The position numbers were made by a program, and so were the translations under genes. From contig JAHCRE010000021.1 in the NCBI GenBank assembly GCA_020148145.1, forward strand, positions 2,538 to 66,537: DNA of 64,000 nucleotides, read 5' to 3'. Each line of letters begins with the position of its first letter. The first letter of the stretch is position 1. The notes beneath the pieces are model-generated. The model did no database searches, was not told the origin of the DNA, and saw only the letters and a program-made list of their open reading frames with translations. Of the stretch, positions 4,665 to 64,000 are shown in pieces. Source of the DNA: Patescibacteria group bacterium (lineage in GTDB: Bacteria; Patescibacteriota; Minisyncoccia; Minisyncoccales; JAHCRE01).

Positions 4665-7600
4665 ATGAAAAAAATAAGATTTAAGAATTTTTCAAAATCC
4701 AAGGTTTTTTTATCTTTACCTTATTTGCTGACCCTGCAAAAAGAAAGTTGGAGGAGATTTTGGGAGAGAGATTTAAAAGAACTTTTTCAAGAGGTATCGC
4801 CAATCCGAGATTATACTGGCGAAGAATTAGAGCTCTGGTTTCTGGGTTATAAATTAGATGAGCCAAAATACAAAACTGATTTAGAGGCAAAACAAAATAA
4901 CGATTCTTATCAAGCCCCCTTACGGGTTAGAATAAAATTAGTTAACCTTAAAACAAAAGAAATCAAAGAACAGGAGGTTTTTTTAACTGATTTCCCCTTG
5001 ATGACTGAAAGGGGAACTTTTATTGTTAATGGGGTGGAGAGAGTGGCAATTTCTCAACTTATTCGTTCACCCGGGGCTTTTTTTACCACCAAAACCACAA
5101 GAGGTAAAAATTATTTTGGAGCAAAAATTATTCCTAACCGAGGGGCTTGGCTTGAATTTGAGACTGAACCCTCTGGCTTCATTGGAGTAAAAATTGACCG
5201 GAAGAGGAAAGTTCCAGCTACCATTTTATTGAAGGCTTTTGGGCTTGATAAAGAAGAAAAGATAAAAGAACTTTTCCAAAAAGTAGATAAAGGAAAAATA
5301 AAGTACATCAAAGAAACTTTATCTCGAGATCCTACTCATAATCAAGCCGAGGCAGTGGTTGAAATTTATCAGAGATTACGACCAGGGGATTTAACTACTC
5401 CTGATACTGCCCGAGAATTGCTTGAAAATATGTTTTTTAATTTCTCCAGATACGATTTATCAAAAGTGGGAAGATGGCGGATGTGGCAGAGGCTTCCTGA
5501 ATTAAAGCCAAAAGTTAATAAAAAAGCTCGGGCTAAAAGTCCAACAGAGGAAATTACTGTATCAGATAGGGTGCTATATCCAGAGGATATTGTGGCTGTT
5601 TTAAGAGAGATTATTCGCCTTAATAATGATCCCGAAGGAAAACCCGATCAAATTGATCATTTAGGCAATCGGAGGGTAAGAACCCTATCTGAACTTTTGC
5701 AAAATAGACTAAGAATAGGGTTAATGAGAATGGAAAGAATCATCAAAGATAGAATGTCAACTTTAGATATTTATACCTTGACCCCTATTCAATTGATTAA
5801 TCCTCGACCCTTTATGGCAGTGGTTAAAGGATTTTTTACTTCTTCTCAAATAGCTCAATTTATGGATAATGAAAATCCTCTAGCCGAGTTAGAACATAAA
5901 AGAAGACTATCGGCTACCGGGCCAGGAGGTCTTACCAGGGAAAGGGCGGGATTTGAGGTAAGAGATGTTCAGCCTTCTCACTATGGAAGAATCTGTCCTA
6001 TTCAGACTCCAGAAGGACCAAATATTGGATTGGTTGGCCATCTAGCTAGCTTCGCTCGAATTAATCCATATGGGTTTATTGAAACTCCCTATTTCAAAGT
6101 GAAAAATAGTAAAGTGACTAAGGAAATTCACTATCTTAATGCCCATGAAGAAGAAAGATACAACATTGCCCATGCTGGGGTGCCTATTGATGAAAAAGGA
6201 AATATTATTCCCAAAAAAGTGGAGGCAAGAATAAAAAGCGAGCCAGGACTAATTGACAGAAAGAAAATTGATTTTTTTGATGTTTCCTCTGAACAATCTA
6301 TTTCCATTGCTTCCGCTTGTATTCCCTTTTTGCAAAATAATGATGCCAATAGAGCCTTGATGGGTTCAAACATGCAGCGTCAGGCAGTCCCCCTTATTAA
6401 ACCGGAGGCTCCCTTAGTCATAACTGGAGTGGAAGAGAGAGTAGCTAAGGATTCTGGGCAGGAGATAATTGCTAAAGAAGATGGAATTGTTACTGAGGTT
6501 GATGCTAGACACATTAAAGTGAAATCTCAAATCTCAAAAAAAGAAAAAATTTATAACTTAAGAACTTTTATTAGAACCAATCAATATACTTGCTCTCATC
6601 AGAAACCTTTAGTTAAAAAGGGTCAAATAATAAAAAAGGGAAATATTTTGGCTGATGGAGGAGGAATATCCCAAGGCTATTTGGCCTTGGGCCAAAATAT
6701 TTTGGTTGCCTTTTTACCCTGGAGGGGAGGGAACTTTGAAGACGCAATTTTGATTTCAGAAAGATTAGTTAGAGATGATAAATATACTTCAGTTCATATT
6801 GAAAACTTTAGTTGTGATGTTAGGGAGACAAAATTAGGACCAGAAATTACTACCTCTGATATTCCAAATGTCTCGGAAGAAAGATTAAAAGATTTAGATG
6901 AAGAAGGAATTATCAGAATTGGGGCAGAAGTCGGACCAAATGATATTTTAGTTGGGAAAATTTCGCCAAAAGGGGAAGCCGATTTAACTGCCGAGGAAAG
7001 ACTGCTACGTGCAATTTTTGGAGAAAAGGCCAGAGACGTAAAAGACACTTCTTTACGAATAGAACATGGGAAACGGGGACGAGTGATTGGGGTGAAGGTT
7101 TTTTCTCGGGAACTCGGTCATAAACTTGAACCCCGAGTTATAAAAAAGATTGAGGTTAAAATAGCCGAGATTCGGAAAATTCAGTCAGGCGATAAATTGG
7201 CCGGCCGCCATGGAAATAAGGGAGTGATTTCTAAAGTTTTACCAGTAGAAGATATGCCATTTTTGGAGGATGGAACTCCGGTAGATATTATTTTAAATCC
7301 TTTAGGCGTAGTCTCAAGAATGAATATTGGTCAGGTTTTAGAAACTCATCTTTCTTTGGCAGCAAAGAAATTGGAATATATAGCTATTTCGCCAGCTTTA
7401 GCTGGAGCAACTGAAAGAGATATAAAAGAAGAGTTGAAAAAAGCTGGTTTATCAGAGGATGGAAAGGTTAAATTATACGATGGAAGAACCGGGCTTCCCT
7501 TTCCAGAAAGGATTACTGTAGGTTATATCTACATGATGAAATTGATTCATATGGTTGAGGATAAAATTCATATGCGATCCATTGGTCCTTATTCTTTGAT

Positions 7601-53506: not shown

Positions 53507-54757
53507 ATGAAAAAAACAAAAAAAATAAAGAGAATAAAGAAAACAAAGAAAGCGAAAAAGACGAAAAGAAAAAAAAGAGCAAAAAGAACAAAAAAGAGAC
53601 CCTTACCTGTCAAAAAAAGAAAAAAGATCAAAAAACGAAAAAAGATTAAAAAAAGAAGGCCTAAGAAAAAGGCAAGAGTGCCCAAAAAGAGAAAAGAGAT
53701 TATTACCCCAGAAAAAATTCAGGCTTTAAAAAAAAGGGGGAAAGAGCGAGGCTTTGTTACCTTGGCTGAGATTTTATATTTTTTCCCAAAAATAGAAAAA
53801 GATATTCAAGGTTTAGAGGAACTTTATGGAGAATTGGAAAAAGAAGAGATTCAGGTTAAAGAGGCTAAAGAACTTTTGGAAGTAAAAGAGATTCCTGAGA
53901 AAAAAAAGGTTCTTAAAAAATCTAGAAAATTAAAAATCGACCCAGTCCAGATGTATTTAAAAGAAATTGGAAAAGTATCTTTTTTGACTGCTGATGAAGA
54001 AAAGGAATTATCTAAAAGAATCGAGAAAGGAGATGAGGCGGCAAAGAAAAAATTAGCCAGGGCAAATTTAAGATTGGTAGTTTCTATTGCCAAAAGGTAT
54101 ATAAGAAGATCCCCAAATTTAACTTTACTTGATTTAATTCAAGAAGGAAATCGTGGCCTTTTCCGGGCAGTGGTAAAATTTGATTGGAGAAGAGGATATA
54201 AGTTTTCTACCTATGCTACCTGGTGGATAAGGCAGGCGATTACTAGGGCTTTGGCTGATCAGTCCAGAACTATCAGAGTTCCAGTCCATATGGTTGAAAC
54301 AATTTCAAAATACGTTAAGGTTAAAAGAAAACTTTTACAGGATTTAGGTCGAGAACCTTTACCAGAGGAGATTGCTGCTGAGATGGGAATTAATGTTAAC
54401 AAAGTCCATCATATCAAGAGGGTTTCTCAGAAAACTGTCTCTCTAGAAACTCCGGTTGGGGAAGAAGAAGATAGTACTTTAGTTGAATTTATCGAGGATG
54501 AAAAGACAATTTTACCATCTTTATCTGCCGCTAGAACTCTTTTAAAAGAAAGATTAAAAGAAATTTTAGTTGACTTGACTCCTAGAGAACAAAAGATATT
54601 AAGAATGAGATTTGGTTTAGACGATGGAATCACCCATACATTAGAAGAAGTAGGAAGAGTATTTGGAGTAACTAGAGAAAGAATTAGGCAAATTGAAGCC
54701 AAAGCCCTAGAGAGGATAAGAGAACATAGAAAGCTTAAAAAGTTGAAAGGATACTAA
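53507..54757 (+). CDS. rpoD: RNA polymerase sigma factor RpoD (sigma-70 family) with an extremely basic N-terminal tail
   Basis: Region 2 (LIQEGN.GL..AV.KFD...[16 protein letters not shown]) and region 4.2 ([20 protein letters not shown]). The first 65 or so residues are almost only K/R. Confidence 0.93.
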
Positions 54758-54794: not shown

Positions 54795-55124
54795 TCCGGC
54801 GTAGCGCAATGGTAGCGCGGGTGCCTGTGAACTTATACGCAGCTTCCTCGAGAAATCGAGGTTGAAAAACGAGGTGAATTGCGGGAAGCCTAATCCGCCT
54901 TAGGCGGAATGGTAATCCGCAGCCAAGCCCTGTGAGATAATTTCACATCTCATAGGGAAGGTTCAGAGACTATCCCGAAAGGGAGTACCCATTCAGAGAG
55001 TAAATTCTGAATGGGGAAGCGCCTCGCTCCCACAATTTTTGGGAGATGAGATAGTCCACCCTTAGTGGAAACACTAGGATAAGGTGTAAGCACTAGGTTG
55101 TAGGTTCGAGTCCTACCGCCGGAG
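54795..55124 (+). tRNA. tRNA-Asn (GUU) interrupted by a group I intron (exons 54795-54828 and 55087-55124)
   Basis: Spliced product: TCCGGCG-TA-GCGC-AATGGTA-GCGC-G-GGTGC-CTGT/TAA-GCACT-AGGTT-GTAGG-TTCGAGT-CCTAC-CGCCGGA-G. Discriminator G73 fits Asn. Thr(UGU) is the alternative if splicing occurs after U33. Confidence 0.8.
54829..55086 (+). ncRNA. Group I intron (IC3-like, no ORF) in the tRNA anticodon loop
   Basis: AATGGTAATCCGCAGCCAAGCC and GAAGGTTCAGAGACTATCC closely match blocks I recall from the Azoarcus tRNA-Ile and cyanobacterial tRNA-Leu introns. P7 GACTATC/GATAGTC. P1: exon CUGU pairs with GCAG (54839-42), with U.G at the splice site. Terminal G at 55086. Confidence 0.85.
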
Positions 55125-55125
55125 C
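55103..55125 (+). repeat. Direct repeat copy 1 (tRNA-Asn 3' end), GGTTCGAGTCCTACCGCCGGAGC
   Basis: Identical 23-mer recurs at 58172-58194. Confidence 0.9.
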
Positions 55126-55194
55126 AGGCTAGTGCTCGATTCGAGCGACCGAGATGCCTTTGGCTTGTGTCCAGTCCGCAAAGCTGATATTTTT

Positions 55195-55214
55195 CGCCCG
55201 AGAGTTTTTCTCGG
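55195..55214 (+). terminator. Hairpin module beta (CCGAGAG-TTTT-TCTCGG), copy 1
   Basis: CGCCCGAGAGTTTTTCTCGG. Near-identical copies end at 58221 and 63663; an inverted half-copy lies at 58572-58584. Confidence 0.5.
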
Positions 55215-55253
55215 ACTTTTCGTTTTACAGGGAAGGAGATATAATGAGGTAAG

Positions 55254-56888
55254 ATGAAAAAAGCGATTTTAATAATATCCGTAATAATCCTTGTAATTGT
55301 TATATTGGTTTTTCTTTTTTTTGTTGGTTTTTCAAAGATATCAACAAATAAGGATATCTATAAAACAAGAGAAGAAGTTATTGTTTCTTTTTCTGATTTT
55401 AGACTACTTCGCTGTAACACTAGCCCAAGTATTACAAACATGTTATTTTATTATGAAACTTCAGAGGGCTGGAAAAGAATAATCCACGAAGACTGGCATG
55501 TTACCTGGGGAGGCATAGCTTGCGTTGATGGTAAGCCCGTACACGGTGTTCATCCAGGAGATATACAAAGATGTACTTTTTTTATCCTTCCATATAAATC
55601 GGGAACATATACTTGGGACTCTAAAGTTTATGAATCAAAAGGGGTGGAAGAAATTTGCGGAGAATTAGAGAAACCCGTTCCTTCTTTTCAATCAAAACCT
55701 GCCTCTCCTGGCAAATATAAAGTAAAATTTGGCAGTGCACAAAAAATTTTTGAGATTAAGGAAGCGATACTGCTAGAACAAATAATACCGCAGGGCGAAG
55801 AACAAGAAAAAGAAACTAGATCAAATAAAGTTCTGACATTACTTACCAAGGTGCCGGCAGACTACAGAAACTTTGCTGATCGTTATGTTGCGTTAAGCTC
55901 ATTGGATATCACAACCGGAGAAAAAACAGAACTTACCCGTTGGGCAGCCTGTGAAGCAACTATTGTACTGTCTCCAGATAAGAATAAGATAGCATATTTT
56001 ATAAAACCGAATGATCGATGCGAAAAAGAATACTATGAGGGAGGTGATGGTCATACAGAATTATGGATATCTGACATATCGGGTAAAGATAAACAGCCTG
56101 CCGCGCGATGGGTATGGAAATTCACTACCCCAAAGTGGTCAGCAGATGGAAAATATGTTGCGTATGACCGGGTCATTGAACACCCCTATCCGCAAGAAAG
56201 AGAACATATATTACTTGTGTATGATCTGCAGAAAAAGACTGAGCAATCTCTTGGATCATTTTTCGGAGCGGCTCATAAGATTATTGGATTTTCTCAAGGT
56301 AGCGAATCGGTCTATTATAATGATGGTCAATTCCTCTACAAAGTAGATATCTCAAACCAAGATAGAGAAAAAATATATACTCACGAATATGGCTTTTATC
56401 AGCACTTTGTGGTATCTCCGGATAGTCGCAGCATTGCTGTCTTTAAAGAGGAGGACTGGTACGGAGGGAAAACGACTCCTCTGGAAACAAAGATTGGGGT
56501 AATCGAAACGTCAACCGGAAAGTATCGCGAACTCTATAATGGCACAGACGCCTTCGCATCTTATACTTACCGAAATAGCTTCGTTTTTCTACCAGATAAT
56601 TCTCGTGTAGTATACGGAACGGCAAAAAAAGGTGAAGGAGGGTTGTGGGCTATTGATATAACTACAGGCGAACGAAAGGAATTAGAGGAAACTTCATCTT
56701 CAACTCTGCACGGAATAGCGCCAATAGCGCTATCTGCAGACGGCGATCTTGTGCTGTATAGCGGTTGGGCATCAGAAACAACATATTATTATACGATCTC
56801 CCTATCTACTGGCGTCGTCACAAACCTTGAGAATACCCGTACCGCTACGCCATACTCAGGAGAGAGATTTTTGGATTGGTTAAATTAA
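55254..56888 (+). CDS. Membrane-anchored PD40/TolB-like beta-propeller repeat protein
   Basis: N-terminal TM helix. Repeated ...SPD...IAY / SADGKYVAY / SPDSRSIAV / LPDNSRVVY / SADGDLVLY motifs. Visibly higher G+C than the core genes. Confidence 0.6.
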   Translation: MKKAILIISVIILVIVILVFLFFVGFSKISTNKDIYKTREEVIVSFSDFRLLRCNTSPSITNMLFYYETSEGWKRIIHEDWHVTWGGIACVDGKPVHGVHPGDIQRCTFFILPYKSGTYTWDSKVYESKGVEEICGELEKPVPSFQSKPASPGKYKVKFGSAQKIFEIKEAILLEQIIPQGEEQEKETRSNKVLTLLTKVPADYRNFADRYVALSSLDITTGEKTELTRWAACEATIVLSPDKNKIAYFIKPNDRCEKEYYEGGDGHTELWISDISGKDKQPAARWVWKFTTPKWSADGKYVAYDRVIEHPYPQEREHILLVYDLQKKTEQSLGSFFGAAHKIIGFSQGSESVYYNDGQFLYKVDISNQDREKIYTHEYGFYQHFVVSPDSRSIAVFKEEDWYGGKTTPLETKIGVIETSTGKYRELYNGTDAFASYTYRNSFVFLPDNSRVVYGTAKKGEGGLWAIDITTGERKELEETSSSTLHGIAPIALSADGDLVLYSGWASETTYYYTISLSTGVVTNLENTRTATPYSGERFLDWLN

Positions 56889-57081
56889 TTTTGGTTTAAC
56901 ACATATTTTTGGATCACCTAAAATTGCGTCTTCTTGCCGGGTTTCTGCCAAGGCGGTTCAGTCCTAAGCTCTTCGAAGGGTTTTTGTTTTGGAAAGAATG
57001 TGGTAAAACGAATAATTCAACCTCAACCGGAGAAAAAGCACGAACAAACATCAAGTCAAAACACTCTTTTGTGGTCATCCA

Positions 57082-57144
57082 GTAGGTTCTAATGTTGTCC
57101 ACGACTCGGAGCAGGTTAGTGCTCGGTTTGAGAGACCGAGCCGC
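57082..57144 (+). repeat. Degenerate tRNA-3'-end + flank repeat (module alpha), copy R2
   Basis: GTAGGTTCTAATGTTGTCCACGACTCGGAGCAGGTTAGTGCTCGGTTTGAGAGACCGAGCCGC. Compare tRNA end + flank GTAGGTTCGAGTCCTACCGCCGGAGCAGGCTAGTGCTCGATTCGAGCGACCGAG. Confidence 0.75.
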
Positions 57145-57278
57145 ATCTCATTTTCAGAATCAGTTCGAGAAAAAAATCGCCCTACCCCGCTAGGAAATCG
57201 AACTTTTCCGAACAAATAGAAATTCGCCGACGAGGCGAATTTTTGTTAGAATGAAATAAAAGATAATCTAATTAGCTT

Positions 57279-58055
57279 ATGGAGATAACTTTTTTAGGCA
57301 CTGGCGGAGTATTAGGAGTTCCTGTTTGGTCCTGTAATTGTAAAGTTTGTAAAGAAGAAATCAAGAAAGACAAAAGAAATATTAGGACAAGACCATCAAT
57401 TTTAGTTACTTCTGGAAATAAAAGAATACTTGTTGATACCGGCCCTGATTTTAGAGCCCAAATGCTAAGAGAAGGAATAAAAAAAATTGATTATGTTCTC
57501 TTAACTCACATTCATATGGATCATAGTGCTTGCCTGATGGAATTAAGAGCTGGAGGCAAACTCCAGTTAGAAATACCAAAAGAAGTCTACGAAGGATTGA
57601 AAGAAAACAGAAGAGTTTTAAGTTATTTATTCGCCAGAAATCCAGACATCAAAATTGACATATTTAAACCTAAAAAGATTGGAAATCTTTTTGTTGAACA
57701 AATTAAGGTTAAACATAAAAAAGATTATTCAGAAGAAGAACAACCAACTTTCGGCTTTCTTTTTATAGAAAATGGATACAGGGTTGCATATATTCCTGAC
57801 TTCTCTGAAGTAGTAGATAAAGAAAAGGTAAAAGGCTTAGATATTTTTATATGTGACGGTGCAACTCTTGAGACTAAGTGGGGTCATATAGGTATTAAAG
57901 GGGGTATTAAATTATATAAAGAACTTAAACCAAAATTAATGATTTTTACTCATTTAAACCACTCGCACTCACATAAAGAACTTGAGAAATACGTGAGTCA
58001 ATTCGGCAATATTAAATTAGCTTACGATGGTTTAACTATTAAGGCAAATGATTAG
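57279..58055 (+). CDS. MBL-fold metallo-hydrolase (PhnP/PqqB-like)
   Basis: HIHMDH motif; N-terminal CNCKVC cysteine cluster, as in PhnP-type enzymes. Confidence 0.72.
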   Translation: MEITFLGTGGVLGVPVWSCNCKVCKEEIKKDKRNIRTRPSILVTSGNKRILVDTGPDFRAQMLREGIKKIDYVLLTHIHMDHSACLMELRAGGKLQLEIPKEVYEGLKENRRVLSYLFARNPDIKIDIFKPKKIGNLFVEQIKVKHKKDYSEEEQPTFGFLFIENGYRVAYIPDFSEVVDKEKVKGLDIFICDGATLETKWGHIGIKGGIKLYKELKPKLMIFTHLNHSHSHKELEKYVSQFGNIKLAYDGLTIKAND

Positions 58056-58129
58056 AAAAATTAAATTATCAGACAAGGTATCCTTATTGCCCAATTCCCA
58101 AAAAACCAAACTCCAGTATTGTACTCTTT

Positions 58130-58221
58130 GGAGCAGACCGAGCCGCCTATCCCGTTAGGGCGACCGAGAGGGGTTCGAGTCCTACCGCCGGAGCCCGTCG
58201 CCCCGAGAGTTTTTCTCGGGG
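58130..58221 (+). repeat. Composite repeat R3: truncated alpha + GTTAGGGCGACCGAG hairpin + perfect 23-bp tRNA 3' end copy (58172-58194) + beta hairpin
   Basis: GGAGCAGACCGAGCCGCCTATCCCGTTAGGGCGACCGAGAGGGGTTCGAGTCCTACCGCCGGAGCCCGTCGCCCCGAGAGTTTTTCTCGGGG. Confidence 0.85.
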
Positions 58222-58286
58222 TTGATTTTGAGTTAGAGATTTGATAGAGTAGATTTAGATCGTTAACAAAAAATGGGAGTGAGAAG

Positions 58287-58508
58287 GTGAGTAATAGATA
58301 CCAAAACATATATACTATTGGCTTCTTTGTCACATTTATCGGGGCTTTGCTTTGTATGTTCGGTGTAATATGGGAATCCTTATTCTTCATAGCTCTTCCA
58401 ATGATAGTTATCGGAATAGCCTTCACCACATATGCGTCGTGGGATGACAGAGATTTGCGAGACACGAACCGCTGTAAGAACGAGGCCCAACAGAAGTGTG
58501 TAATCTAA
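58287..58508 (+). CDS. Small two-TM membrane protein (GTG start)
   Basis: 73 aa and hydrophobic, followed by a clean terminator. Function unknown. Confidence 0.45.
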   Translation: MSNRYQNIYTIGFFVTFIGALLCMFGVIWESLFFIALPMIVIGIAFTTYASWDDRDLRDTNRCKNEAQQKCVI

Positions 58509-58534
58509 ATCCTCTCTATTTAAATAAGGAATCC

Positions 58535-58566
58535 AAGTCAGGTTTTTTAAACACCTGACTTTTTTA
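58535..58566 (+). terminator. Rho-independent terminator
   Basis: AAGTCAGGT-9nt-ACCTGACTT followed by a T-run. Confidence 0.7.
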
Positions 58567-58584
58567 TTCAACCCCGAGAAAAAC

Positions 58585-58647
58585 AGGTTCTAACATCGTC
58601 CGTCCCTCGGAGCAGGCTAGTGCTCGGTTCGAGGTGACCGAGCCGCC
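58585..58647 (+). repeat. Degenerate tRNA-3'-end + flank repeat (module alpha), copy R4
   Basis: AGGTTCTAACATCGTCCGTCCCTCGGAGCAGGCTAGTGCTCGGTTCGAGGTGACCGAGCCGCC. Confidence 0.8.
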
Positions 58648-58648
58648 T

Positions 58649-58682
58649 AAAAATCGCCAAGAAGGCGGTTTTTTAGTAGAAT
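58649..58682 (+). promoter_or_regulatory. Hairpin + T-run + TAGAAT -10 box module directly upstream of the ATG at 58689
   Basis: AAAAATCGCC-AAGAA-GGCGGTTTTTT then TAGAAT (58677-82), 6 nt before the ATG. Analogous modules lie at 57221-57252 (TAGAAT) and 61378-61409 (TATAAT). Confidence 0.5.
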
Positions 58683-58688
58683 GGGGTA

Positions 58689-60059
58689 ATGTTTATTAAA
58701 GAAGAAAAAACCAATATTAAATATCTCTTAATTGTAGTTGTTTTAGCTGCCATTGTTGGCGGAGGAATTTTACTTTATGCAAAACAGACCGTAAAAGAGT
58801 TAAGTTTTCTTAGCTACTTCCCAGAGATAAAAAAACCTGAAAAAAGGCCAGAAAAAAAGCCCGTCTATCTTAAATTATTTGAAGAAGTAAGGGAACAACT
58901 AATTTCTAAAAAAACTGATTTTTTGGAAGTTAATCTTGCTAAGATGAAAATAGGGCTTTACAAAAAGGGTCTTATGACAAAAGAGGTTTTTATTTTAACA
59001 AAAGGAGATCCTCAAGGTTGGGGAGGGTCGGCAGCTGGGATATATAAGGTTATATCTGGAAACAAGCTCAGCTTTTCGGTTATTTCAAATGTTTATATGC
59101 CATACGCTCTTCGCTATTACGGGAAGTATTACCTTCACGGAGAGCCCTATTATCCTGGGGGAGGGCAGCTTGATTCTTCAATTTCAGGAGGTTGTCTTCG
59201 TCTGAGCAACGAAGACGCAAAACTCATTTATGAATTAACCGAACTAGATATGCCTGTTTTAGTGACAGATAAAGAGAAGGATCACTATGAATATTCTAAG
59301 CAAAAATTATCCAGGTTTCCGGAAATTTCCGCTCAGAGTTATCTGGTGGCAGACTTGGATTCAGGATATGTTTTTGCCGAAAAGGATTCTCGGAAACGAC
59401 TTCCCGCGGCTTCATTAACAAAATTAATGACAGCTGTAGTTGTAGCTGAGAATATGAATTTAAGAAAACCTATTTTGGTAAAAGAAAAAATGCTTGAAGC
59501 TTACGGTTCTACCGAAGGACTGGAATCCGGTGAATGGTTTAGGGTGGTGGAATTGTTTTACCCTCTTTTGATAGAATCCTCTAATGATGCTGCCGAGGTT
59601 CTTAGTTATTTCTTAGGCAGAGAGAAAACTATCAAACTAATGAACGAGAAAGCCGAAGCTATTTTCATGGAGCAGACAGAATTTGTTGATCCTTCTGGTT
59701 TTGCTCCCGAAAACGTTTCCACGGCCCGAGACCTCTTTTATTTGGTCAGATACTTATTAAATAATCGTCCTCCAATTTTAGAGATTACCAAAGGGAAAGA
59801 GGTATTGAGCTTTGGAGAGGTTGATTTTGAAATTGAAGAGTTATGGAACAAGAATGTTTTTATTAACGACCCAACTTTTGTTGGCGGAAAGACGGGTTTT
59901 ATTAAGGCTTCTAAATACACGGCTGTGTTTATTTTTCGTTTTACCGCTCAAGACGGCACAGAACGTAACATAGTGATTATCCTTTTGGGCTCTGAAAATA
60001 ATGAGACCGATACCCAAAAAATTTACAAATGGCTTCAAGAAAATTATTTCGAAAAATAA
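58689..60059 (+). CDS. Membrane-anchored fusion: L,D-transpeptidase (YkuD) domain + D-alanyl-D-alanine carboxypeptidase (S11/PBP5-like) domain
   Basis: YkuD: YLHGEPY...SGGCLRLSNEDA. S11: ASLTKLMTA (SxxK), SSNDAA (SxN), GGKTGF (KTG). Confidence 0.8.
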   Translation: MFIKEEKTNIKYLLIVVVLAAIVGGGILLYAKQTVKELSFLSYFPEIKKPEKRPEKKPVYLKLFEEVREQLISKKTDFLEVNLAKMKIGLYKKGLMTKEVFILTKGDPQGWGGSAAGIYKVISGNKLSFSVISNVYMPYALRYYGKYYLHGEPYYPGGGQLDSSISGGCLRLSNEDAKLIYELTELDMPVLVTDKEKDHYEYSKQKLSRFPEISAQSYLVADLDSGYVFAEKDSRKRLPAASLTKLMTAVVVAENMNLRKPILVKEKMLEAYGSTEGLESGEWFRVVELFYPLLIESSNDAAEVLSYFLGREKTIKLMNEKAEAIFMEQTEFVDPSGFAPENVSTARDLFYLVRYLLNNRPPILEITKGKEVLSFGEVDFEIEELWNKNVFINDPTFVGGKTGFIKASKYTAVFIFRFTAQDGTERNIVIILLGSENNETDTQKIYKWLQENYFEK

Positions 60060-60180
60060 AAAAGTTATTTTGATTTCTCCAAATAAAACAGAATTTTTCT
60101 CGGGTTTTATTGTGCGGGGAAAGAGGTACAATAATATAAAAATAAAAGGTCGATAGATATAAATTAAAACAAATGAAAAT

Positions 60181-61233
60181 ATGTCTTTTATTATAGAAGG
60201 TAAAACTAACTTAAAGTATATTTTAATTATACTTATTCTGGCCGTCTTGGTTGGCGGGTGGGCTTTATGGTTGTCAATAGAAGAAGAGATTTCTCCTGTC
60301 GAAGAAATTAAAGACGAGGTTTTAACTCTTCTTGAAAATCTCAAACAAGAAACTGGAATAGATTTTTCAGGGATAGAAGAGCTTGAATTTAAGTGGATTA
60401 TTAAGGTAGACCCCGAAATAGGAGAAGAAACTGTAGCTGGAAAAGGATTTGAAGCTGAACGCATATCAAGTGAACAATATGATAGTATTGAACTGTTTTT
60501 AAAAGATAATGGCTTTGAAGTAGATCTTTACAATATAGCTGCTGGCACTATTTCAGAATTAACAGGATATATCAAAGGCAAGACTGTTTGTACTGTTGCA
60601 GGAGGTTTTACCGGATACAAAGAAGCAGAAGGCCAGTGGGTTCCGACTGATACTGATAATAACTGGGACACAACTATCAAATGTGGCAAGGTAGAGAAAA
60701 CCAAAATAGAATACGCAACAGAGGATTGGCAGGTTTATACGAATGAAAAATACGGCTATTCTTTGAAGTATCCTCAGCCCTGTCTTTATGGTCCTTTGCC
60801 AGGTTATTGCAAGCAAAGTCCACCAGAAGAAAGACCCCGGGAATGTCTGTGCTACTTTAATGCTGAAGATCCAAACAACGTGTCTCTGGCAACATTTACC
60901 GGCACAAAATCTGATTTAACCGGTGCTGAATTTGTTGTTTTCCATTCTATTTACGTTGATTATTATAGTCCTCCTGCTGGTACAGACCTGGTTGAATGGG
61001 TTAAAGAAAACTTTTCTTACTATGACGATATTCCCGATGAAATAAATATGGAAGTAGACGGAATACCAGCTTTAAGGGTTTACACTCCTTTTTCAGGAAT
61101 GGCCTGGTCTCAAGAAGATATCTACTTTATAAAGAATGATAAACTTTTTAAGATTAGTATGTTAGATGTAGACAACCAAGATAATAGGGCACTGTATGAT
61201 AAAATACTTTTTACTTTTAAGATTTCGGAATAA
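60181..61233 (+). CDS. Membrane-anchored/secreted hypothetical protein
   Basis: N-terminus MSFIIEGKTNLKYILIILILAVLVGGW is shared with 58689 and 63701. No recognisable catalytic motif. Confidence 0.5.
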   Translation: MSFIIEGKTNLKYILIILILAVLVGGWALWLSIEEEISPVEEIKDEVLTLLENLKQETGIDFSGIEELEFKWIIKVDPEIGEETVAGKGFEAERISSEQYDSIELFLKDNGFEVDLYNIAAGTISELTGYIKGKTVCTVAGGFTGYKEAEGQWVPTDTDNNWDTTIKCGKVEKTKIEYATEDWQVYTNEKYGYSLKYPQPCLYGPLPGYCKQSPPEERPRECLCYFNAEDPNNVSLATFTGTKSDLTGAEFVVFHSIYVDYYSPPAGTDLVEWVKENFSYYDDIPDEINMEVDGIPALRVYTPFSGMAWSQEDIYFIKNDKLFKISMLDVDNQDNRALYDKILFTFKISE

Positions 61234-61299
61234 ATTCCAATAATTCCCTCATCTGTCCCAATACTATCTCTGGATACTTAAACACCTCTTCCTATTTCA

Positions 61300-61370
61300 A
61301 GGTTCTAAAATCGTCCGCTAGACCGAGCATGCGACCGAGAGGCCCTAGGCGTTAGGGCGACCGAAGGGTC
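61300..61370 (+). repeat. Mosaic repeat R5 (tRNA-T-arm-like AGGTTCTAAAATCGTCC + GACCGAG motifs + GCCCTA/TAGGGC hairpin)
   Basis: AGGTTCTAAAATCGTCCGCTAGACCGAGCATGCGACCGAGAGGCCCTAGGCGTTAGGGCGACCGAAGGG. Confidence 0.7.
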
Positions 61371-61415
61371 TCATTTAAAAATCGCCGAAAGGCGATTTTT
61401 TGGTATAATAAAGGA

Positions 61416-62006
61416 ATGAAAACTAAAGTTTTAATTATTTTAATAATTTTAGTTGGTTTAACAGGGATTTGGCTGGGCTTAAGATTTATAATTGACAAAT
61501 CCAAGCCGCTAGAGCCTATTGCCTGCACAATGGACGCAAAACTCTGCGCGGACGGTTCTTATGTCTCTAGAATTCCGCCGAAATGCGATTTTGCGCCGTG
61601 TCCAGAAACAAAAACAATAAAACTTTATTATTATAATTACGAACTGGATAGAGACGAGTGGGGGAATATCGCTTGTAGTAGAAATGGATTGGTGCCGGTT
61701 GAGAGAAAAATTCCAATAACCAAGACGCCGATTCAGGATACTATCAAACTTTTGCTTTCGGGCAAACTTAACGATGAAGAGCGGGCTCAGGGAATCAGCA
61801 CAGAATATCCTCTGGAGGGGCTTTCGTTGAAAGGAGCCTCATTAGGGGAGGGCGTTTTAACGCTCGAATTTGACGATTCCAACAACAAAACCGTTGGCGG
61901 CTCCTGCCGGGTGGGCATTCTTTGGTTTCAGATTGAAGCAACGGCCAAACAATTTTCAGAAGTCCAGCAAGTCCGCTTTCTGCCAGAGGAAATTTTTCAG
62001 CCGTAA
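61416..62006 (+). CDS. Membrane-anchored GerMN-domain-like protein
   Basis: IKLYYYN...VPVERKIP.TK.PIQDTIKLLLSG.L..EE...G.STE.P....L......GVLTLEF pattern. Confidence 0.6.
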   Translation: MKTKVLIILIILVGLTGIWLGLRFIIDKSKPLEPIACTMDAKLCADGSYVSRIPPKCDFAPCPETKTIKLYYYNYELDRDEWGNIACSRNGLVPVERKIPITKTPIQDTIKLLLSGKLNDEERAQGISTEYPLEGLSLKGASLGEGVLTLEFDDSNNKTVGGSCRVGILWFQIEATAKQFSEVQQVRFLPEEIFQP

Positions 62007-62025
62007 GATAAACTATAAGTAAATT

Positions 62026-62400
62026 ATGACCAGAAATAAAAAAATTATCACTATCTTTGTCGCGTTAATTGTTATCGGGATAGTTTTTGTTGTCAGTTAT
62101 TATAAATTAATCAATAAAAACTCGGACGAAGTTATAGAGATAGCACAACAGACAAAAGAAGTTCAGGAATTTTTGAAGAAATATCCTGAAGCAAATCTAA
62201 AAGTAATAATCGGGGATATATTTGACAAAATTGCCTTTGTTGAATATATAGTTAGAACTGAGAAGGAAAGATTAAACTTTTTCATTTATATTGATAAAAC
62301 CACGGGGGAAATAGAAAGGATGGAAATCGCGGTTTTAAATGAGACAGGACTGGAATACAGCACTGACAATATTCTAGGATTTTTATTTAATCAACCATAA
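62026..62400 (+). CDS. Small membrane-anchored hypothetical protein
   Basis: N-terminus MTRNKKIITIFVALIVIG, similar to the ORF at 63036 (MARNKKIIIIATITALVV). Confidence 0.45.
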   Translation: MTRNKKIITIFVALIVIGIVFVVSYYKLINKNSDEVIEIAQQTKEVQEFLKKYPEANLKVIIGDIFDKIAFVEYIVRTEKERLNFFIYIDKTTGEIERMEIAVLNETGLEYSTDNILGFLFNQP

Positions 62401-62411
62401 AATATTTTAAA

Positions 62412-62669
62412 ATGCCAATCACTTTTGATACCGATCTTCTCGGCCCATTCTTATCAGAAAATCAGTGGATTTTTTGGTTGATTCTTCTTTGGACTTTACC
62501 TTGGAAAGGGGTGGCCCTTTGGAAATCAGCCAGAAATAGCCACAAGAAATGGTTTGTAGCCTTACTGATACTCAATACAATGGCTATTTTAGAAATTGTA
62601 TATATTTTCTTCTTTAGCAAGAAAAAGGCACAAAAGTCAGATAATTTAAAATCAAACGAAGTATTCTAA
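62412..62669 (+). CDS. Small two-TM protein (DUF5652-like)
   Basis: WKGVALWKSARNSHKKWFVALLILNTMAILEIVYIFFF pattern, recalled from a family common in CPR genomes. Confidence 0.5.
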   Translation: MPITFDTDLLGPFLSENQWIFWLILLWTLPWKGVALWKSARNSHKKWFVALLILNTMAILEIVYIFFFSKKKAQKSDNLKSNEVF

Positions 62670-62678
62670 CTACACCAA

Positions 62679-62909
62679 ATGAAAATTTCCCGAATAATTG
62701 CAATATTTCTTATTGTCTTTCTGTGCATCTCGGGGATTTCCTTGTTAGTTTCATATTTTCTGTTTAATCCTCACGACATATGTTTTCTTTGCCATCTCAG
62801 GAATTGCGTTTGGGTTTTGTATTTTGGTGTTAATCCCTCCGACTTAAATGGAGATGGTAAAGTAGATACACAAGATGTAAGTATTTTACTAAAACCATTC
62901 ACTAAATAA
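62679..62909 (+). CDS. Small membrane protein with a dockerin/EF-hand-like DLNGDGKVDTQDV motif (possibly a remnant)
   Basis: 76-aa ORF with a single Ca-binding-type repeat at the C-terminus. Confidence 0.3.
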   Translation: MKISRIIAIFLIVFLCISGISLLVSYFLFNPHDICFLCHLRNCVWVLYFGVNPSDLNGDGKVDTQDVSILLKPFTK

Positions 62910-63035
62910 TGAAGTATGGTTATCTTAGCCTAGTCCTTTTGATAATAAGCGGGTCCCGAATCAAGAGCCTTTGCTTTTGAGAAAAAAAAGAATTGCCCTC
63001 GGTTACTTATCTAAAAAATATTTCAAAAGACAAAA

Positions 63036-63218
63036 ATGGCCAGGAATAAAAAAATCATTATAATTGCAACAATTACTGCTTTGGTCGTTATAGTGGCATG
63101 GGCGCCGTGGCTGGATAATCAAATTCTGCACGATAAGGTGTTTCAGGAAAGAGCTAAAATAGATGGAACAATAGATAAATACACTGGTGAGCTGATTTGC
63201 GACTACAATGTGATGTAG
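63036..63218 (+). CDS. Small membrane-anchored hypothetical protein
   Basis: 60 aa, with an N-terminus paralogous to the ORF at 62026. Confidence 0.35.
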   Translation: MARNKKIIIIATITALVVIVAWAPWLDNQILHDKVFQERAKIDGTIDKYTGELICDYNVM

Positions 63219-63320
63219 GCGCCATTTGGCAGATGGGTGGCAAGTTGCGAGGGCGGTTACTATGTAACTTTTTGGGGTAAAATATTATTGCCCTAGGGCG
63301 GTTTTTGATATAATAAAAAT

Positions 63321-63518
63321 ATGGATAATAATCTATCTAAAAAAAGATGGTCAAAAGAAGGCGCGATTATTGGAGCAGTTGTTGGGGCAATTAGTGGATT
63401 TTTAACTGGCTGGTTAAAAGACGAATTCGGGTTTGATTTTTTAACACGACTCTTAATAGTAGTTATTGTTAGTATTATTGTTGGGGGGATATTGTATTTT
63501 TTGCTAAGGAATAAATAA
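63321..63518 (+). CDS. Small two-TM hypothetical protein
   Basis: 65 aa; TATAAT (63309-14) lies 6 nt upstream of the ATG. Confidence 0.4.
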   Translation: MDNNLSKKRWSKEGAIIGAVVGAISGFLTGWLKDEFGFDFLTRLLIVVIVSIIVGGILYFLLRNK

Positions 63519-63612
63519 GTTTTTTACACTTTTTCATTTTAGCTTAAAAACGCCCCGACCGAGGGGCGTTATGGGGCACGTCTAAAAACCGTCAAATTTG
63601 TTCCTGAAACCT

Positions 63613-63663
63613 AGGTTCTAGACCGACTACGGGAGCCCGCCGCCCTGAGAGTTTTTCTCGGGG
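63613..63663 (+). repeat. Repeat R6 (T-arm-like AGGTTCTAGACCGAC + acceptor-like GGGAGCCCGCCGCCC + beta hairpin)
   Basis: ...ACGGGAGCCCGCCGCCCTGAGAGTTTTTCTCGGGG versus R3 GCCGGAGCCCGTCGCCCCGAGAGTTTTTCTCGGGG. Confidence 0.75.
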
Positions 63664-63700
63664 TTTGTTTTGCGGGCGGTTTGAGTTATAATTAGACAAT

Positions 63701-64000
63701 ATGCCTTTTCTTACTCAAGGTAAAACTAGTTGGAAATATATTTTAATTGTATTGATTTTAGCTATTATTGTTGGCGGAGGTATTTTAGTATGGCGGTACT
63801 GGTGGATACCGAAAGAAAAAGGAAAGTTATGCTTTAATGAAAAATATGAGACAGAGCGAAGATATGTTGGTGGCTTTGGGAAATTGATTGATTTAACGCT
63901 CAAGAGTGGCGATAAACTTAGAGAAGTAATTAGAAAAGATGGGAATATTGCATTACAGGGAATTAGTAACCTCACTTGTTTGGAAATGTTGAATATAAAT
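63701..64000 (+). CDS. Partial (3'-truncated by the window) membrane-anchored protein of the GKT..KYILI family
   Basis: My translation is MPFLTQGKTSWKYILIVLILAIIVGGGILVWRYWW..., open to the window end. It is not in the ORF track because no stop is reached. The tracked minus ORF 63715-63975 is its antisense shadow. Confidence 0.55.
   Translation, partial: MPFLTQGKTSWKYILIVLILAIIVGGGILVWRYWWIPKEKGKLCFNEKYETERRYVGGFGKLIDLTLKSGDKLREVIRKDGNIALQGISNLTCLEMLNIN

Follow-up and report, generated by a model that had tools for sequence, protein, structure and literature searches.

The tRNA-Asn gene and the array behind it

The 64-kb stretch of Patescibacteria DNA analyzed here, referred to below as the window, carries on its forward strand a tRNA-Asn(GUU) gene (54795-55125) followed by an array of protein-coding units separated by short repeats (55.1-64 kb). 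The core repeat, here called T, exists in two forms: T1, the 24-nt 3' end of tRNA-Asn, and T2, a 29-nt element with the consensus AAACAGGTTCTAACrTCGTCC-N6-CGGAGC. T is accompanied by further modules (alpha, beta, hairpin iii, and a hairpin followed by TAnAAT). Comparison with loci from other genomes and metagenomes, whose contigs are labeled by L and a number, suggests that the T copies are probably attachment (att) sites of large serine recombinases (LSRs).

The tRNA-Asn gene consists of two exons (54795-54828 and 55087-55125), the anticodon loop being split by a group I intron (54829-55086) that was detected by a permissive Rfam scan (RF00028, 88.7 bits). Once the intron is removed in silico, ARAGORN recognizes a canonical tRNA-Asn(gtt) of 73 nt; the unspliced gene is called neither by ARAGORN nor by a default Rfam scan at gathering thresholds. 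Between 54600 and 64000 the intron is the only Rfam match above threshold, the next best being RNAI with 20 bits against a threshold of 47 bits. In relatives L016-L020 the tRNA-Asn genes have no intron.

The nearest relatives found have RpoD proteins 80-82% identical to that of the window. In these relatives the upstream gene order is kept (GroEL, LemA, M48 peptidase, glycosyltransferases, DnaG, RpoD, tRNA-Asn), and the content 3' of tRNA-Asn is different in each. RpoD of the window has a Lys/Arg-rich N-terminal extension of about 65 residues (region 53507-53800), and its closest homologs align over 84-86% of the protein.

Inside the window, a regular expression for T matches five times in the last 9 kb and not once in the other 55 kb, with 0.24 matches expected by chance (200 simulations, maximum 2). 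All the accompanying modules lie on the forward strand of the same region, and none occurs in the remaining 55 kb.

Two forms of the T element and their distribution

A pattern scan detected T2 in at least 120 metagenome contigs of Patescibacteria. Two discrete lengths occur among the 279 T matches from all loci, 24 nt (42 matches) and 29 nt (220 matches). Conservation of T2 sets in at AAACA and stops abruptly after CGGAGC, and the hexamer N6 in between is variable. The inner blocks (A/G)TCC and CGGAGC are equidistant from the 3' edge in T1 and T2, and the outer block AGGTTC(G/T)A lies 5 bp further out in T2.

The preliminary description of this DNA had called the T copies degenerate and the repeats derived from the tRNA-Asn 3' end and its flank; the copies are not products of local decay of this tRNA gene, T2 being a discrete 29-nt element kept across many Patescibacteria genomes. 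A similar correction applies to alpha, described there as matching the local tRNA flank. This module is shared: a pattern scan found it in 13 stretches of genomes of other Patescibacteria species, including three complete chromosomes of Nealsonbacteria, and in one IMG/VR contig. In all those stretches alpha is preceded by a tRNA-Asn-like end, GGTTCGA(G/A)TCCTAnCGCCGGAGC, or by the T2 form AGGTTCTAACATCGTCCGTCCCTCGGAGC.

Other modules of the window also recur elsewhere. The T2 copy at 58585 is identical to that of L007. Hairpin iii forms in other genomes an arm directly 5' of T1, and the junction of GCGACCGAGAGG with GGTTCGA is found in L004, L005, and L009. T, alpha, hairpin iii, beta, and the other hairpins occur in many combinations, both here and in other genomes. 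The median size of the 118 segments between consecutive T copies is about 0.8 kb; homology at the level of whole cassettes was observed for only three pairs of them, too few for statistics.

Several loci have T2 copies in unusual arrangements. In L034 (954-4947) T2 copies of two subtypes follow one another about every 1 kb in the order A, B, A, B, A. The sequences behind the first two A copies are 79% identical, as if a block of two units had been duplicated in tandem. L061 (reverse strand, about 1700-1775) and L096 each have a degenerate T2 (GGTTCTAACATTGTCCAGTAGGAG), behind which come a short P-arm-like stretch and a full T2 of the ACGATG subtype; this arrangement may be the scar of an almost entirely deleted element. 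One IMG/VR contig, a genuine phage fragment that encodes terminase, portal, and major head proteins, has a T2 close to one end.

Anchoring on tRNA-Asn and breaks of homology at the T edge

The compared loci were fetched mostly by the T2 pattern, and tRNA-Asn accounts for 17 of the 42 tRNA genes in them. In the tRNA-Asn loci, all 26 further T copies are located downstream of the tRNA gene and on its strand; none was observed upstream or on the opposite strand.

In pairwise alignments, homology stops exactly after ...GGAGC(A) and gives way to unrelated DNA (L019/L020, L051/L096, L112/L048, and L002/L129). L019 and L020 encode identical RpoD proteins. Four related contigs, near-identical through the 3' end of tRNA-Asn, differ in the first unit: three different ones occupy the interval from the T1 edge to the next T2 edge. 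After this T2, a fourth module is present in two of the contigs and absent from a third. Similarly, one promoter module starts at the first base past T2 in six contigs with unrelated upstream units. It consists of TTGACC-N17-TATATT followed by the palindrome ATATCCTAATATAGGATAT, which on sequence grounds looks like an operator, and was found in L112 (471-560 and 1238-1330), L021, L034, L061, L074, and L122; the second copy in L112 has no T2 before it. The N6 hexamer of T2 is common to two loci when they share the upstream unit and different when only the downstream side is shared. Because the hexamer goes with the upstream unit, the joint is located at the 3' end of T.

At orthologous positions in the two genomes of the pairs L002/L129 and L008/L011, T1 and alpha occur without the 5' half of the tRNA, directly after the stop codons of genes that look like housekeeping genes (by eye, those of an aminoacyl-tRNA synthetase and a Clp ATPase). 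The pair L002/L129 loses homology at the T edge, and in L008/L011 homology extends to the end of alpha. Several metagenome contigs (L075, L112, and L049) start or stop about 50 nt before tRNA-Asn, as would be expected if strain variation downstream breaks assemblies.

Large serine recombinases at the T edge

A search seeded with the recombinase gene located 3' of tRNA-Asn in L019 yielded homologs in four further T-bearing loci. All recombinases tested contain the Resolvase, Recombinase, and Zn_ribbon_recom domains and hence are LSRs. The LSR gene converges on T, and its 3' end is a few tens of bases from the T edge. At tRNA-Asn, LSRs were found in five distinct elements: L019 (the same element is present in L142-144), L020, L032, L145, and L146, with LSR identity of 72% for L145, which is a different genome, and 69% for L146. 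In L127 the LSR gene is adjacent to a T2, and in L069 it occupies one end and T2 the other, 8.7 kb apart. Just past the junction, three of the LSR elements share a similar CAyrTGGGA. An arm of about 45 nt directly 5' of T2 is common to the LSR-bearing L069 and L127 and to L051, L010, and L004; the same arm precedes the T2 of the window at 57084. No tyrosine recombinase was detected in the 1129 open reading frames (ORFs) of T-bearing loci either by a Pfam-validated XerD seed or by a catalytic-motif search. In IMG/VR no relative of these LSRs was confirmed.

The preliminary description had proposed both a comparison of unit content and a search for a recombinase. The former, made on related lineages rather than on strains of the same species, revealed the same tRNA-Asn flank with different units and breaks at the 3' edges of the repeats, and the latter an LSR at the repeat edge in relatives.

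Two observations concern the surroundings of the LSR genes. Among the cargo genes of L142 (1-9995) and L145 (1-7237) are those of an N6/N4 methyltransferase accompanied by a DEAD helicase and of a type I restriction-modification system accompanied by a Fic protein, a composition like that of defense islands. In L009 a LOOT RNA (6785-6904, reverse strand; RF03000, 94.8 bits) lies directly past the 3' end of an LSR gene and may be where a different member of the recombinase family integrates.

Attachment-site model

We consider it probable that the repeats are att sites of a family of LSRs by which mobile DNA enters the 3' end of tRNA-Asn in Patescibacteria, and that the array in the window consists of accreted units devoid of a recombinase. 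The suggestion of accretion at a tRNA att site with a cassette-like logic, made in the preliminary description, agrees with the observed zone, which is bounded by recombination sites and anchored on tRNA-Asn.

In the half-sites of serine integrases, the position of the motif bound by the recombinase domain is fixed, and the zinc-ribbon-domain motif is 5 bp nearer to the center in attB than in attP (Rutherford et al., PMC3783163). The 5-bp shift of the outer block between T1 and T2 matches this rule, and thus T1 would be an attB-type and T2 an attP-type left half-site. Strand exchange catalyzed by the LSR would then take place in the invariant CGGAGC block, a few bases inward of the 3' edge of T. 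The break would appear just after GGAGC because CGGAGC is identical in both partners of such a crossover. Weak dyad symmetry around five of six junctions is no more than suggestive of a crossover center within CGGAGC.

The array could have arisen as follows. An incoming element would join at the T edge and bring its own T copy at the far end. Repeated entries, followed by the loss of the recombinase and of most genes, would leave co-oriented units behind the tRNA, each ending in T, down to units with a single gene. Alpha, beta, hairpin iii, and the hairpin with TAnAAT would be pieces of arms, terminators, and promoters adjacent to T, which are re-paired when a new right side meets an old T. 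Such re-pairing at each joint would produce the mosaic combinations of modules.

A number of observations weigh against this explanation. Five of six junctions have a dyad center 2.5-6 nt inward of the T edge, but with weak symmetry (11-14 of 25 positions), and L146 has none. Conservation is lacking for the right half-site, and the outer motif was not seen in inverted form. LSRs were found in only 5 of about 145 loci and no recombinase in the 64-kb window, and the distal end (attR) of an intact LSR element anchored on tRNA-Asn was not recovered; in L142 and L145 it lies at a distance of over 10 kb. T1 and alpha at orthologous positions without the 5' half of a tRNA are not predicted by the model, which also offers no reason for the strong conservation of alpha. 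Of 267 T copies, 257 are intergenic; 85% are co-oriented with the upstream gene, at a median distance of 60 nt past its stop codon, and in most cases a terminator and then a promoter follow. A role in RNA would also predict such co-orientation and placement. Finally, in some contigs T2 copies form rows with one copy per gene, the extreme case being L061 with eight near-identical T2 copies in 5.9 kb. Canonical LSRs recombine attP with attB only, and therefore simple repeated integration does not explain such rows.

Organization of the array in the window

All features of the array are on the forward strand. The repeat modules listed in the preliminary description proved real, at or near the positions given there. 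The same is true of its T-arm/acceptor copies at 57084, 58585, 61300, and 63613, but an exact copy at 58172-58193 had been overlooked.

The array starts with T1-a (55102-55125, AGGTTCGAGTCCTACCGCCGGAGC), the final 24 nt of the tRNA and the proposed attB-type left half-site together with the crossover region; this is the tRNA position that LSR genes adjoin in L019, L020, L032, L145, and L146. Directly 3' of it is alpha-1 (55126-55158, AGGCTAGTGCTCGATTCGAGCGACCGAGATGCC), followed by the terminator-like hairpin beta-1 (55196-55215, motif 55199-55214, CGCCCGAGAGTTTTTCTCGG). The cargo of unit 1 (55254-56888) is a membrane-anchored beta-propeller-like protein of 544 aa. Only seven homologs of this PD40 gene were found, adjoining tRNA-Ser or tRNA-Gln and lacking T elements; hence, T is no fixed companion of this gene. 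Next come the P-arm of about 45 nt and T2-a (57084-57112, AGGTTCTAATGTTGTCCACGACTCGGAGC), together at 57040-57112; T2-a is a proposed attP-type half-site that would mark where unit 1 ends.

Alpha-2 (57113-57145) follows. An extra module (57150-57215), also present in L015 and L005, a hairpin (57220-57243), and TAGAAT (57247-57252) precede the cargo of unit 2, the gene of an MBL-fold hydrolase (57279-58055; 258 aa; Pfam Lactamase_B_2, 1.6e-28). Behind it, sequence comparison identified an alpha truncated by an internal deletion (58130-58147), overlapping hairpin iii (58144-58168), and then T1-b (58171-58194), which is followed by beta and not by alpha. T1-b contains the exact 22-nt copy of the tRNA-Asn 3' end (58172-58193, no mismatches, none expected by chance). 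This beta is the terminator hairpin beta-2 (58199-58222, motif 58204-58219).

In unit 3 the cargo is a small protein of 73 aa with two transmembrane segments (58287-58508). The repeat search found after it an inverted half of beta (58568-58584, 17 of 17 positions complementary), T2-b (58585-58613, AGGTTCTAACATCGTCCGTCCCTCGGAGC), alpha-3 (58614-58647), a hairpin (58649-58675), and TAGAAT (58677-58682). Unit 4 (58689-61233) encodes a YkuD-Peptidase_S11 fusion protein (58689-60059) and an anchored protein of 350 aa (60181-61233) with no T between them. It ends with T2-c (61300-61328), a degenerate copy ending in CCGAGC, after which come GACCGAG repeats, the second hairpin iii (61343-61366), another hairpin (61377-61400), and TATAAT (61404-61409). 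Six small, mostly membrane or secreted proteins form the cargo of unit 5 (61416-63518), among them a Germane-domain protein, a DUF5652 protein, a dockerin-like fragment, and a glycine-zipper/holin-like protein. A diverged T1-like copy of 24 nt (63613-63636, AGGTTCTAGACCGACTACGGGAGC), beta-3 (63642-63664, motif 63646-63661), and TATAAT (63687-63692) precede the next ORF, which starts at 63701 and continues past the window edge.

The three full alpha copies (starting at 55121, 57108, and 58609) have 0-2 mismatches to a 25-mer of the module, with none expected by chance. Hairpin iii has the form GCCCTA..TTAGGGCGACCGA in both its copies (58144-58168 and 61343-61366), and each of the three AAAATCGCC hairpins is followed by TAGAAT or TATAAT. 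The heptamer GACCGAG is enriched (12 copies in the window against 1.8 expected), but the figure of at least nine copies in the spacers given in the preliminary description was slightly high, since eight are on the forward strand within 55.1-63.6 kb. Its statement that a repeat precedes every gene or gene group was overstated: the spacer 60060-60180 contains only a weak beta-like match, and the six-gene block 61416-63518 has no internal repeats. The cargo had been annotated broadly correctly (MBL-fold hydrolase, YkuD with Peptidase_S11, Germane, DUF5652), the dockerin and propeller matches being weak.

Read in terms of LSR integration, T1-b with hairpin iii before it and beta after it would be the original tRNA end with its terminator, displaced by about 3 kb; beta-2 is plausibly the original tRNA trailer. 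The displacing insert would start with alpha, carry the propeller and MBL genes, and hold the joint of P-arm, T2, and alpha at 57040-57145. Further units would then end at 58585, 61300, and 63613. Since the window has no recombinase and its T copies are mutually diverged, the array looks like old, eroded remains of accretion rather than a currently active system.

Three otherwise unrelated cargo genes start with a near-identical leader, M.F..(E/Q)GKTN.KYILI.....A..VGGG (58689-58762, 60181-60257, and 63701-63777). The DNA encoding it constitutes a repeat family, D1, with 65-75% identity, and the PD40 homolog in L149 has a similar leader. By its sequence, the shared leader may be a lineage-specific membrane anchor or secretion signal.

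Alternative explanations

Another scenario, which we regard as possible but rather unlikely, is that T2 is the site of an active cassette system, widespread in Patescibacteria, in which single genes with their own promoters and terminators are captured, excised, and reshuffled at T sites behind tRNA-Asn by a serine recombinase acting in trans. Such a system would be a functional analog of integrons with another recombinase family and a tRNA-derived site. T2 copies are more alike within a contig than between contigs, which hints at ongoing activity or homogenization rather than passive decay and keeps this scenario in play.

Tyrosine-integrase islands at tRNA genes, with T copies being displaced 3' fragments of the tRNA at various stages of decay, are an improbable source of the array. 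The exact 22-nt repeat of the tRNA 3' end, 3 kb downstream of the tRNA, has the appearance expected of a displaced end and is a textbook mark of such islands; tandem accretion at tRNA genes is also well known. The left boundary of T, at the T-loop, coincides with a known integrase sublocation. However, no tyrosine recombinase was found in the window or among the 1129 ORFs of the T-bearing loci, and the recombinase at the T edge is of the serine type in every case. Moreover, T2 exceeds T1 by 5 nt, and this form is conserved in more than 200 copies, which is not a decay series.

It is equally hard to see T as a transcribed regulatory element, located in 3'-untranslated or intergenic regions and mimicking the 3' end of tRNA-Asn in processing, stability, or termination, with no recombination involved. 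This explanation has little probability in our view, even though it agrees with the intergenic position of T on the strand of the upstream gene, shortly past the stop codon and mostly before a terminator and a promoter, and with the very strong sequence conservation across genomes. No conserved RNA fold was found: single-sequence folds of 17 copies of T with alpha share only the alpha hairpin, and mutual information over 207 distinct T2 copies reflects neighbor effects only, with no pairing. The alpha copies are too invariant for covariation analysis. Only the 3' strands of the T and acceptor stems are contained in T1. An RNA element also does not account for the lack of T among the core genes in the other 55 kb of the window, and predicts neither the placement downstream of tRNA-Asn, nor the breaks of homology at the T edge, nor the recombinase there.

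The least probable explanation is that T belongs to a family of MITE-, REP-, or BIME-like repeats, small and non-autonomous, which spread into intergenic DNA by transposition and resemble the tRNA end by chance. Such a family would fit the mosaic combinations, the many copies per contig in some lineages, and the likeness of copies within a contig. Against it, neither terminal inverted repeats nor duplications of a target site were seen, the orientation relative to tRNA-Asn is uniform in 26 of 26 copies, and identical T edges enclose different whole genes, so that the difference is not confined to the repeat. The search seeded with the L019 LSR, which was not a systematic scan for transposase families, gave further recombinases of the large serine type only.

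Two assignments of individual segments were rejected. GTTCTAAC and GTTAGGGC could be read as attC-like, but have no palindromic partner. Alpha was considered as a symmetric right half-site, but its GGTTCGAG is in direct and not in inverted orientation relative to T.

Relation to known systems

The closest counterparts of the att sites are those of LSR systems such as Listeria A118/LI, Bxb1, and phiC31. The recombinases found by the site, in relatives only, have the same domain architecture, the sites are short, the inner motif is at a fixed distance from the center with the outer motif 5 bp further in one class (PMC3783163), and the junction falls within a few invariant central bases. Unlike in these systems, a tRNA 3' end serves as the target here, conservation is confined to the left half-site, attP-type half-sites stand in tandem with one per gene, which the canonical attP x attB rule does not produce, and no recombination directionality factor was identified.

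The arrangement of units resembles the SCC and pseudo-SCC composite islands of staphylococci, made by Ccr serine recombinases at rlmH (orfX). In both cases insertion is serial at the 3' end of one conserved gene, the units are bounded by short direct repeats of the target, many of them contain only cargo without a recombinase, and the structure is mosaic (bioRxiv 10.1101/336396). The differences are far smaller units here (median about 0.8 kb, often a single gene), the tRNA anchor, two repeat lengths, and Patescibacteria as hosts.

Like integron cassette arrays and CALINs, which are clusters of attC sites devoid of an integrase, the arrays consist of co-oriented single-gene units each ending in a conserved site, with no recombinase nearby and with repeats more alike within an array than between arrays. 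In contrast to integrons, there is no IntI or other tyrosine recombinase among the 1129 ORFs, the head of the array is tRNA-Asn and not attI, T has neither the imperfect palindrome of attC nor R''/L''-L'/R' boxes, and the units carry their own promoters and terminators.

Other systems share single features. Accretion of ICEs and CIMEs in streptococci and the tRNA-Asn hotspots of Klebsiella (PMC4891358) offer parallels in the tRNA-Asn hotspot, the att-bounded arrays, and the persistence of integrase-less elements, but they involve tyrosine integrases, long identity segments, and elements of many kilobases. The pdif modules of Acinetobacter plasmids are gene modules bounded by conserved sites of about 28 nt with no recombinase inside, but these are XerC/D sites of alternating orientation. 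BIME/REP sequences of enterobacteria are mosaic extragenic modules after stop codons, but BIMEs are palindromic and do not bound exchangeable genes.

No description of such a system in Patescibacteria was found in the literature searched, whose coverage was limited. The preliminary description knew of no comparable system, yet the parts match LSR att sites and tandem accretion of the SCC type. The system is best classified as a combination of known kinds, serine-integrase att sites with SCC-like tandem accretion in an integron-like organization.

Implications

Patescibacteria, also known as CPR, have tiny genomes, and the gain and exchange of their surface and accessory genes are poorly understood. 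If it marks where units are swapped, the 24- or 29-nt site behind tRNA-Asn would provide a simple sequence handle for a variable gene pool in metagenomes, and swapping of units at T sites would explain why assemblies break at tRNA-Asn. Serine integrases that target a tRNA gene and have a readable attB/attP pair may serve as tools for genome engineering. If it is true that the single-gene arrays actively shuffle, they would represent a second, independent invention of an integron-like cassette system.

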